IMG/VR virus record: IMGVR_UViG_3300037076_000108
Source of the DNA: a virus
Reading direction: 5' to 3' (one strand)
Length of the DNA stretch: 26,379 nt
Part shown: positions 23,473-23,786 of the stretch, one piece after another
Numbering within the stretch: position 1 is the stretch's first letter
Layout of the letters: each line of letters starts with the position of its first letter
Made by a program: the position numbers and the translations under genes
Notes under the pieces: model-generated
What the model was told of the DNA's origin: nothing
What the model saw: only the letters and a program-made list of their open reading frames with translations
Databases searched by the model: none

Positions 23473-23548
23473 TGGTAGCCCCGGTCGGATTTGAACCGAC
23501 ACTGAATCGGGTTTAAGCCGAATCCCTCTGCCGTTGGGGTACGAGGCT
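23473..23548 (-). tRNA. Atypical class-I tRNA with anticodon UAA (Leu-type anticodon on a short-variable-arm scaffold, discriminator A73)
   Basis: 76 nt, standard numbering. Acceptor AGCCTCG/CGGGGCT, T-arm GTCGG-TTCAAAT-CCGAC, anticodon arm TTCGG-CTTAAAC-CCGAT with a T:T mismatch at 27:43. CCA encoded. Confidence 0.5.
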
Positions 23549-23707
23549 ATGTTTAACTTTTCCGTAGACGTTCATGGTATTCTCAACATTAGTCGGCGTC
23601 ATCACCCATGCGTCCGCTTCCTTCTTACTTGTTGTGCGGCGAACAAACTCAAATCCACCAGGACTTGAAACTCCAAGATTATACTCTATGTGTCTACCGT
23701 ACATAAG

Positions 23708-23786
23708 TGGTAGCCGTGGTGGGACTCGAACCCACACTGTTCAGGTTTTGAATCTGTTGTCTCCTGCCAAATTGGACTACACGGCT
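23708..23786 (-). tRNA. Atypical tRNA or tRNA-like, paralogue of the previous one; best fold gives anticodon CAA with a weak 3-bp anticodon stem
   Basis: 79 nt. Perfect acceptor AGCCGTG/CACGGCT and T-arm GTGGG-TTCGAGT-CCCAC. The anticodon region ACAGA-TTCAAAA-CCTGA pairs poorly. Possibly a pseudo-tRNA. Confidence 0.4.

Follow-up and report, generated by a model that had tools for sequence, protein, structure and literature searches.

We examined a 26,379-nt stretch of viral DNA (IMG/VR virus record IMGVR_UViG_3300037076_000108; hereafter the window) that carries, within a cluster of tRNA genes on its minus strand, two short genes with leucine anticodons, which we call t1 and t2. The comparative evidence makes it likely that both are genuine type I tRNA-Leu genes, whose variable loop is short where class II tRNA-Leu has a long variable arm, and that their products would be leucylated by the host's leucyl-tRNA synthetase (LeuRS) and decode UUA and UUG. 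The two genes are:

23548-23473, minus strand: t1, putative type I tRNA-Leu(UAA), 76 nt with encoded CCA; called by ARAGORN; 49.9 bits with the Rfam tRNA model (RF00005) and 73.0 bits with the family model R1 described below
23786-23708, minus strand: t2, putative type I tRNA-Leu(CAA), 79 nt with encoded CCA; called by ARAGORN; 49.3 bits with the Rfam tRNA model and 82.5 bits with R1

Both genes had been proposed in an earlier note made from the letters of the sequence, and the ARAGORN coordinates and lengths are identical to those it gave. Read on the minus strand, t1 is AGCCUCG UA CCC-CAACGGCAGA-GGG A UUCGG CUUAAAC CCGAU UCAGU GUCGG UUCAAAU CCGAC CGGGGCU A CCA and t2 is AGCCGUG UA GUC-CAAUUUGGCAGGA-GAC A ACAGA UUCAAAA CCUGA ACAGU GUGGG UUCGAGU CCCAC CACGGCU A CCA. 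Each has an A1:U72 pair, the discriminator A73, an encoded CCA, a canonical T-arm and a short variable arm, as described in that note; its account of perfect acceptor stems does not strictly hold for t1, which has one U5.G68 wobble. The D-arm of t1 combines a 3-bp stem (CCC/GGG) with the D-loop CAACGGCAGA and is followed by a 5-nt variable loop, UCAGU, while t2 has the 3-bp stem GUC/GAC, the D-loop CAAUUUGGCAGGA and the 5-nt variable loop ACAGU. In the anticodon arm, t1 has the loop CUUAAAC and a lone mispair, U27.U43 (noted earlier as T:T), and t2 has the loop UUCAAAA and, as also noted, only three pairs (28:42, 29:41 and 30:40), which lie between A27.A43 and A31.C39. The anticodon of t2, earlier called probably CAA, is firmly CAA, its register being set by homologues.

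Low covariance scores had been named as grounds for dismissing the pair. The scores with RF00005 are 49.9 bits for t1 (E = 4.5e-8) and 49.3 bits for t2 (E = 6.4e-8), above the gathering cutoff of 29 and within the range of the window's other tRNAs (44.9-63.9 bits). Ten further public assemblies, from several samples, are 99.8-100% identical across the region, differing by one single-nucleotide polymorphism and one 13-nt indel, both outside the tRNAs. Four of these independent assemblies, which come from different samples, contain both t1 and t2 with the same sequence, which rules out an assembly artefact.

We surveyed IMG/VR with two independent probes that ignored the anticodon, one built on the variable loop and T-arm (probe 1) and the other on the D-arm, with nothing fixed 3' of position 25 (probe 2). 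All tallies from these surveys are among the matches listed. Probe 1 returned at least 111 tRNAs, with anticodons UAA (66), CAA (24), UAG (15), GAG (4) and CAG (1) and one Arg-ACG; 110 of 111 have A73. Probe 2 returned at least 109 unique tRNAs, all 70-80 nt long, with anticodons UAG (31), CAA (29), UAA (27), GAG (12), CAG (7) and AAG (2) and one ambiguous case; A73 is present in all 104 that could be parsed, and the commonest variable loops are ACAGU (66), UCAGU (10), CCAGU (9), GCAGU (8) and GUAGU (5). Only 15 tRNAs were found by both probes. Pooled, the surveys give at least about 200 distinct viral members with all six Leu anticodons, and all but two are clearly Leu. One body with Leu anticodons of both codon boxes and almost nothing else indicates selection for leucine decoding; judged from these sequences, a single body with six Leu anticodons is the hallmark of a leucine acceptor charged by a synthetase that takes no account of the anticodon. 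Position 37 carries A37 in 78 of 82 members with UAA and 45 of 48 with CAA, and G37 in 11 of 15 with GAG and 5 of 7 with CAG. The family follows the usual position-37 rule, A37 going with UUR readers and G37 being frequent in CUN readers, as would be expected of tRNAs that really decode.

The features that define this family recur in t1 and t2. Both have the Leu-type D-arm, with a 3-bp stem, C13-A14-A15 (found in 105 of 107 family members), G18G19 and an N-A-G-(G)-A beta region; both have a 5-nt, stemless NCAGU/C variable loop; and both present a Leu anticodon in a 7-nt loop with U33 (UAA in t1, CAA in t2). Neither has the long paired variable arm of class II, their lengths being 76 and 79 nt compared to 87-88 nt for the class II neighbours. 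The A1:U72 pair is rare in the family (about 2.5%), while U72 itself is common. A sensitive DNA search found t2 to be 78-89% identical to annotated tRNA-Leu genes of 73-75 nt in phages of Streptomyces, Synechococcus, Prochlorococcus and Pseudomonas. The homologues of t2 share the D-arm GUAG-YCC-AA..GGCAG(G)A-GRC, the loop ACAGU, the T-arm and A73, and the acceptor and anticodon stems of its phage homologues diverge through paired changes. The two genes had been called paralogous, which is right in that they fall in one family and wrong if close copies are meant: they are 70% identical to each other, and t2 is nearer to a Streptomyces phage tRNA (85.5%).

We tested the fold with an alignment of 121 family members (A1), which held no window sequences and used an explicit cloverleaf with a 3-bp D-stem. 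Pairing is satisfied in 97.2% of paired cells, compared to 36-44% in controls with slid partners. The covariation score reaches 0.854, compared to 0.10-0.14 in these controls, and both sides have changed in 19 of 20 pairs. The loosest pairs are 27:43 (unpaired in 22 of 121) and 31:39 (16 of 121), the positions behind the mispaired stems flagged earlier. From this alignment we built a covariance model (R1), again with the window sequences left out, which scores t2 at 82.5 bits (E = 3e-23) and t1 at 73.0 bits (E = 2e-20), ahead of the runners-up in the window, the class II Leu-UAG (40.8 bits), Pro (40.3 bits) and class II Leu-CAA (37.2 bits) tRNAs. By these scores, t1 and t2 are members of the type I tRNA-Leu family.

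Several class II tRNA-Leu genes share the cluster. Three of them lie nearby, as the earlier note had observed; they carry the anticodons CAA, UAG and GAG and are within 2.7 kb:

24045-24132, minus strand: class II tRNA-Leu(CAA), 88 nt; called by ARAGORN; Rfam 47.3 bits, R1 37.2 bits
24661-24747, minus strand: class II tRNA-Leu(UAG), 87 nt; called by ARAGORN; Rfam 53 bits, R1 40.8 bits
26088-26175, minus strand: class II tRNA-Leu(GAG), 88 nt; called by ARAGORN; R1 25.5 bits

Related viral contigs place t1 within this arrangement. Contigs L361 and L357/L362 share the window's gene order (Leu-GAG, Leu-UAG, Leu-CAA, Leu-UAA, three Ser tRNAs, an 848-aa gene and two Gly tRNAs), and their Leu-UAA gene at the slot of t1 is class II, 85-87 nt long; the maximum R1 score in the related contigs is 47.3 bits. 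These relatives have no counterpart of t2. The acceptor stem of the class II Leu-UAA of L361, the closest relative, is AGCCUCG/CGAGGCU-A and that of t1 is AGCCUCG/CGGGGCU-A. The strand AGCCUCG is expected at a frequency of 4e-5 from the family's position frequencies and is found exactly in none of the 121 members, while the D-arm, position 26 and variable loop of t1 are of the family type. Compared in this way, t1 corresponds to the lineage's class II tRNA-Leu(UAA) in position and acceptor stem, whereas its body is type I.

This position bears on function. An upstream extension of the window (contig L364) adds a class II Leu-CAG, and neither the window nor this extension contains a class II Leu-UAA. 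Consequently, t1 is the only UUA reader within the cluster, which is a strong argument for its being functional. Leucine codons in 19 window open reading frames (ORFs) include UUG at 33.7%, the commonest, and UUA at 8.3%.

Several routes could account for the mixed character of t1. The resident gene could have recombined with an incoming type I gene, or a type I gene could be held to its acceptor stem by a strong lineage-specific constraint; loss of the arm followed by convergence is, we think, a less likely route. A search for the exact t1 core pattern returned no match in viral contigs. The pattern of t1 acceptor strands with a UAA loop had no match in metagenome contigs and in viral contigs matched only L361, and hence no intermediates between class II and type I were found. 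The spacers of the window and its relatives are not conserved and gave no alignment that could date the insertion of t2, and a search for related loci with a 255-aa neighbouring protein gave no matches.

Related observations on variable arms come from the same relatives. A tRNA-Leu(CAG) in L361 (2239-2317) is only 79 nt long; its variable loop, GUUUAU, has 6 nt and its T-loop, UCCGACU, is aberrant. The corresponding gene of L357 is class II and 82 nt long. The variable arm of the L361 class II Leu(UAA) is poorly paired. Erosion of the variable arm may be recurring in this phage lineage.

Charging by LeuRS is consistent with the identity positions. The determinants for the Escherichia coli LeuRS are A73, A14, the A15:U48 Levitt pair, G18G19, A20a and the tertiary pairs that join the D-loop with the T-loop, along with U54:A58, U55 and C56, while the anticodon and the long variable arm are dispensable and a truncated tRNA-Leu without both is still active (PMC9976931). 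All of these nucleotides, including A14 together with U8, are found in t1 and t2, a result that concerns the presence of nucleotides and not their recognition. Across the alignment, the family is seen to keep a Leu-type acceptor end and elbow (U72/A73, a 3-bp D-stem, C13-A14-A15, G18G19, A20a, U48 and a canonical T-loop), with NCAGU replacing the long arm. Streptomyces coelicolor has on its chromosome a type I tRNA-Leu(CAA), with the variable loop ACAGC, which is leucylated in vitro by its own LeuRS with a kcat/Km of 6.25 s-1 uM-1, roughly half that of the type II tRNA-Leu(UAA) (14.2 s-1 uM-1); its minimal variable loop is 5 nt, A14 matters, and the leucine-specific domain of LeuRS decides whether an enzyme charges this tRNA (PMC6614811). 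Taken with the family data, the comparative evidence supports the suggestion that an A73 tRNA of this type with a UAA anticodon could be charged by LeuRS and read UUA or UUG.

Several observations weigh against this reading, and we consider them together with the explanations that they would favour. The E. coli LeuRS and one other Streptomyces LeuRS fail to charge the S. coelicolor type I tRNA-Leu (PMC6614811), so that the chargeability of a type I tRNA depends on the host enzyme. The caveat is softened because U48 of the phage family, in place of the C48 of the S. coelicolor tRNA, supplies the A15:U48 pair needed by the E. coli LeuRS, and because Ounavirinae phages that infect Salmonella, Erwinia and Cronobacter have kept the family, with members 78 nt long that carry the anticodon AAG. 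The LeuRS of these three hosts should be near that of E. coli. The failure of the E. coli enzyme would also favour t1 and t2 being no substrates of the host LeuRS and having a non-decoding role, either as decoys for tRNA-targeting toxins or as processing or regulatory elements in the cluster. We consider such a role very improbable: a decoy has no need to be restricted to six Leu anticodons or to match its position 37 to position 36, and both the retention of the family in Salmonella and Erwinia phages and its U48 argue against it.

Further points concern the individual genes. The t1 anticodon loop carries C38 and so departs from the A36-A37-A38 motif, which together with i6A37 (N6-isopentenyladenosine at position 37) is named as a determinant for TrmL (PMC9976931), and the phage assemblies are identical in t1 and t2, leaving no within-population variation for gauging selection. 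The other points fall on t2. Its three anticodon-stem pairs, three of five positions, place it in the lowest 4% or so of the family (three or fewer in 9 of 201 members, some of them parsing artefacts). Its anticodon arm alone folds at -0.4 kcal/mol, compared to -1.3 kcal/mol for its closest homologues, in Streptomyces phages, and -3.1 kcal/mol for t1, and its cloverleaf lies 2.1 kcal/mol above the minimum free energy (MFE), while that of t1 lies within 1 kcal/mol of it. Its anticodon is duplicated by the class II CAA gene 258 nt upstream of it, and the related phages L361 and L357/L362 have no counterpart of t2.

These properties are what one would expect if one or both genes were decaying or non-functional copies, t2 being the likeliest as a redundant gene with an eroding anticodon stem. 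We regard decay as unlikely overall. For t1, the earlier suggestion of a decaying pseudo-tRNA is contradicted by strong family membership, compensated stems, intact identity positions and the Leu-UAA slot. Its D-stem CCC/GGG differs from the usual family GYC/GRC on both strands with pairing kept; it is the sole UAA gene of the cluster; and none of a low covariance score, broken stems or lost invariants is seen. Its mispaired anticodon stem, flagged as an oddity, is ordinary, since four of five positions are likewise paired in 42 of 201 family members (21%).

For t2, the flagged stem is a family extreme, and decay remains a minority possibility. Against it, t2 has the top family-model score in the window, all of its conserved tertiary and identity positions are intact and its CCA is encoded. 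The A31.C39 mispair beside U32 also occurs in members with the CAA anticodon in Streptomyces phages, in cyanophage S-CRM01 and on one actinobacterial chromosome; because of this recurrence, it is a lineage trait rather than random damage. The other mispair falls at 27:43, the family's loosest pair, and A27.A43 is the unusual part of the t2 stem. A floppy, mismatched anticodon stem is also compatible with function in the human mitochondrial tRNA-Leu(UUR) (PMC9976931). In sum, t2 has the window's best R1 score with its invariants intact, yet a three-pair stem that folds at only -0.4 kcal/mol, and we are less sure of its function than of that of t1.

A different proposal is that the tRNAs are charged with an amino acid other than leucine, for example by phenylalanyl-tRNA synthetase (PheRS), which would give deliberate mistranslation of UUR codons. 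The anticodon of tRNA-Phe, GAA, differs from UAA and CAA at position 34 only, and A73 is common to both, so that A35, A36 and A73 are shared; in addition, a SEA-PHAGES record labels a homologue 'tRNA-Gln(caa)', and isotype callers are therefore unsure. We consider this extremely unlikely. The identical body occurs with UAG, GAG, CAG and AAG anticodons, which have nothing in common with Phe or Gln, and a GAA anticodon was never seen among the matches listed. The D-arm is of the leucine type, with its 3-bp stem, long beta region and A20a, and the Streptomyces member is leucylated in vitro (PMC6614811). An origin from tRNA-Phe or tRNA-Trp, raised by loop similarity, was dropped on the family's D-arm and anticodon spectrum.

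The earlier note also raised the possibility of suppressors, and suppressor tRNAs occur in phages with reassigned stop codons. A suppressor or recoding function would require other registers, giving UUA (ochre) in t1 or UCA (opal) in t2, and with A31.C39 open a 9-nt loop containing UCA, AUUCAAAAC, can be drawn for t2. We give this almost no weight. Alignment with at least about 200 homologues fixes the register, so that positions 34-36 read UAA in t1 and CAA in t2; no stop anticodon appeared in either anticodon-blind survey, among the matches listed; and the alternative register of t1 breaks its stem. Window ORFs of 1398, 848 and 601 aa stay open under the standard code, and conserved genes of the window show no stop codons in frame. 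Suppressor and frameshift readings were accordingly rejected, UAA and CAA being anticodons that read sense codons.

For leucine decoding, the proposed course of events is as follows. The two genes would be transcribed along with the minus-strand tRNA cluster and processed into CCA-ended tRNAs, which the host LeuRS would leucylate. During infection, t1 (U34) would decode UUA and UUG, standing in for the class II tRNA-Leu(UAA) of the relatives, and t2 (C34) would decode UUG as an additional reader beside the class II CAA gene. Promoter and terminator scans around t1 and t2 gave counts no higher than in shuffled sequence.

A short arm might also serve as a phage counter-defence, leaving toxins directed at class II tRNAs without a hold on this leucine decoder. 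The toxin MenT3 requires the long variable loop as an anchor (PMC11541572), and the anti-phage toxin AbiEii seems to favour class II tRNAs (bioRxiv 10.64898/2026.01.19.700257). If this were true, the in-place replacement at t1, with the lineage's acceptor stem kept, would be a snapshot of an arms race. We think the idea improbable, and it is weakened in that, for four other Leu anticodons and likewise for three Ser tRNAs, the same phage retains class II genes. Bacterial Schlafen nucleases were considered as a class II-specific threat and set aside: the one characterised enzyme also cuts type I tRNAs, and the paper shows no class II preference. A paper on evasion by phage tRNAs does not discuss variable arms.

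The closest described system is the S. coelicolor type I tRNA-Leu(CAA) (PMC6614811). By its published description, it resembles t1 and t2 in its 5-nt loop (ACAGC, compared to ACAGU in t2 and UCAGU in t1), A73 and important A14, and t2 in its CAA anticodon; S. coelicolor and the window alike have type I and class II tRNA-Leu side by side in one cell or genome. The closest cultured relatives of t2 are Streptomyces phage genes, at 85.5% identity. The window genes differ in being phage-borne and in having U48 rather than C48 and A1:U72, and t1 carries UAA, an anticodon that in S. coelicolor belongs to the class II bldA tRNA.

Short tRNA-Leu genes of cultured phages share with t1 and t2 the D-arm, the NCAGU loop, the T-arm, A73 and the Leu anticodons. 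They occur in P-SSM7, cyanophages P-RSM6, S-CRM01 and S-SKS1, Streptomyces phages Comrade and Sham, Pseudomonas phage vB_PseuGesM_254, Ounavirinae of Erwinia and Salmonella, EFDG1 (Enterococcus) and BCP78 (Bacillus); the D-loop of t1, CAACGGCAGA, is the same as that of Prochlorococcus phage P-SSM7. Unlike these genes, the window pair combines the rare A1:U72 with a C10:G25 D-stem in t1 and the weakest anticodon stem in t2. Canonical class II tRNA-Leu shares A73, A14, A15:U48, G18G19, A20a, the 3-bp D-stem (13:22 unpaired) and the T-loop tertiary pairs with both genes, and the A36-A37-A38 of class II UUR readers is also found in t2. It differs in its variable arm, which forms a stem and has about 13-17 nt, compared to 5 nt in t1 and t2, and the window's class II Leu genes reach only 25-41 bits on the family model. 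The tRNA-Leu(UAA) of E. coli has G1.U72.

Animal mitochondrial tRNA-Leu(UUR) resembles t1 in being type I with a UAA-type anticodon and in taking its identity through A73 and A14 (PMC9976931). Mitochondrial tRNAs have reduced D- and T-loops and a dedicated LeuRS, while the loops of the window genes are fully canonical; the S. coelicolor LeuRS does not charge the human mitochondrial tRNA (PMC6614811). A tRNA-Leu(TAG) in a horizontally mobile tRNA cluster of Mycobacterium has a short variable loop, with a class II gene elsewhere in the genome, and was noted there in passing (PMC6582537); this gene is chromosomal, unlike t1 and t2, and is likened to them by description only.

Beyond phages of enterobacteria, the family is found in phages of Pseudomonas, Bacillus, Enterococcus, Lactobacillus, Mycobacterium, Streptomyces and cyanobacteria. 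One scan of cellular genomes with the D-arm probe gave 88 tRNAs, 87 of them with Leu anticodons and all but one 74-79 nt long, mainly in Actinomycetota, with others in Acidobacteriota, Planctomycetota, Chloroflexota, Myxococcota and cyanobacteria. The A-UUCAAAA-C loop of t2 recurs in a CAA gene on an actinobacterial chromosome.

Type I tRNA-Leu was known before, from animal mitochondria and, since 2019, from S. coelicolor, and what these surveys bring out is an under-appreciated breadth of the family rather than something new in principle. Textbooks and the 2019 Streptomyces study hold that bacterial tRNA-Leu is almost always class II. Our surveys suggest that the short-arm form is common, with hundreds of viral contigs, phages of Gram-negative, Gram-positive, actinobacterial and cyanobacterial hosts, and many bacterial genomes. 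Dozens of GenBank phage records carry such genes as plain tRNA-Leu; we found no paper in the searchable literature that treats phage-borne type I tRNA-Leu as a class, and Fan et al. (PMC6614811) do not mention phages. Annotators should not flag short-arm tRNA-Leu genes as pseudogenes or as other isotypes. The family also poses the question of which bacterial LeuRS charge type I tRNAs, given the failure of the E. coli enzyme and the retention of the family in Salmonella and Erwinia phages. For the phage of the window, UUA would be served by a non-canonical tRNA in place of the canonical one.

ARAGORN finds 12 tRNA genes in the window, every one on its minus strand, from 13.9 to 26.2 kb; the window also encodes T4-type baseplate proteins. 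Its gp6 homologue has its top identity, 41%, with Pelagibacter phage HTVC008M; myoviruses of Methylophilales, Caulobacter and cyanobacteria come next. A near-identity search of cultured phages gave no DNA-level match to the tRNA region. Judged from its genes, the source is an uncultured T4-like phage, and its host is probably non-actinobacterial.

Another tRNA of the cluster (25500-25593, minus strand), called Ala(CGC) by ARAGORN, is 94 nt long and class II-like, with 44.9 bits in Rfam. Its D-stem has 3 bp, its variable arm is about 24 nt long, A73 and an A31.C39 mispair are present, and it is followed by CUA in place of CCA, unlike the window's other 11 tRNAs; it combines a Leu/Ser-type body with an alanine anticodon. 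The gene is identical in assembly L364, and the slot lacks such a gene in relatives L361 and L357.

Among the protein genes, an 848-aa ORF beside the tRNA cluster (16201-18747, minus strand) matches the major vault protein domains MVP_shoulder and, weakly, Vault_3 in precomputed Pfam results; it has no PHROG match and is 58-79% identical across six viral contigs. A 126-aa ORF with a Pfam RF-1 domain (peptide chain release factor / peptidyl-tRNA hydrolase; 15671-16051, minus strand) lies between the Gly and Ser tRNA groups, and a 174-aa ORF of the GIY-YIG homing endonuclease type (9077-9601, minus strand; phrog_314 and phrog_7168) lies amid the baseplate genes. The 13-nt indel, at 25719-25731, is the sole difference between the window and L364 over 5.5 kb and falls inside a predicted 160-aa ORF (25587-26069). 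The length of the indel is not a multiple of three; one variant must therefore carry a frameshift in this ORF, unless the ORF is no real gene.

Two further observations concern family members elsewhere. In Streptomyces phage Sham (L002, 301-375), a member with the anticodon CAA is labelled 'tRNA-Gln(caa)' in GenBank, and a neighbouring tRNA with the anticodon UAC is labelled 'tRNA-Tyr(tac)', a label that contradicts its anticodon; such labels probably come from isotype-model scoring of atypical phage tRNAs. On viral contig L114 (9612-9905), the anticodon loop of a type I tRNA-Leu(UAA) is interrupted by a group I intron (9641-9846; RF00028, 59.9 bits), in the layout known for cyanobacterial and plastid class II tRNA-Leu(UAA). 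Fragments on L115, L088, L061 and L030, which ARAGORN does not call, may resemble this intron-split gene.

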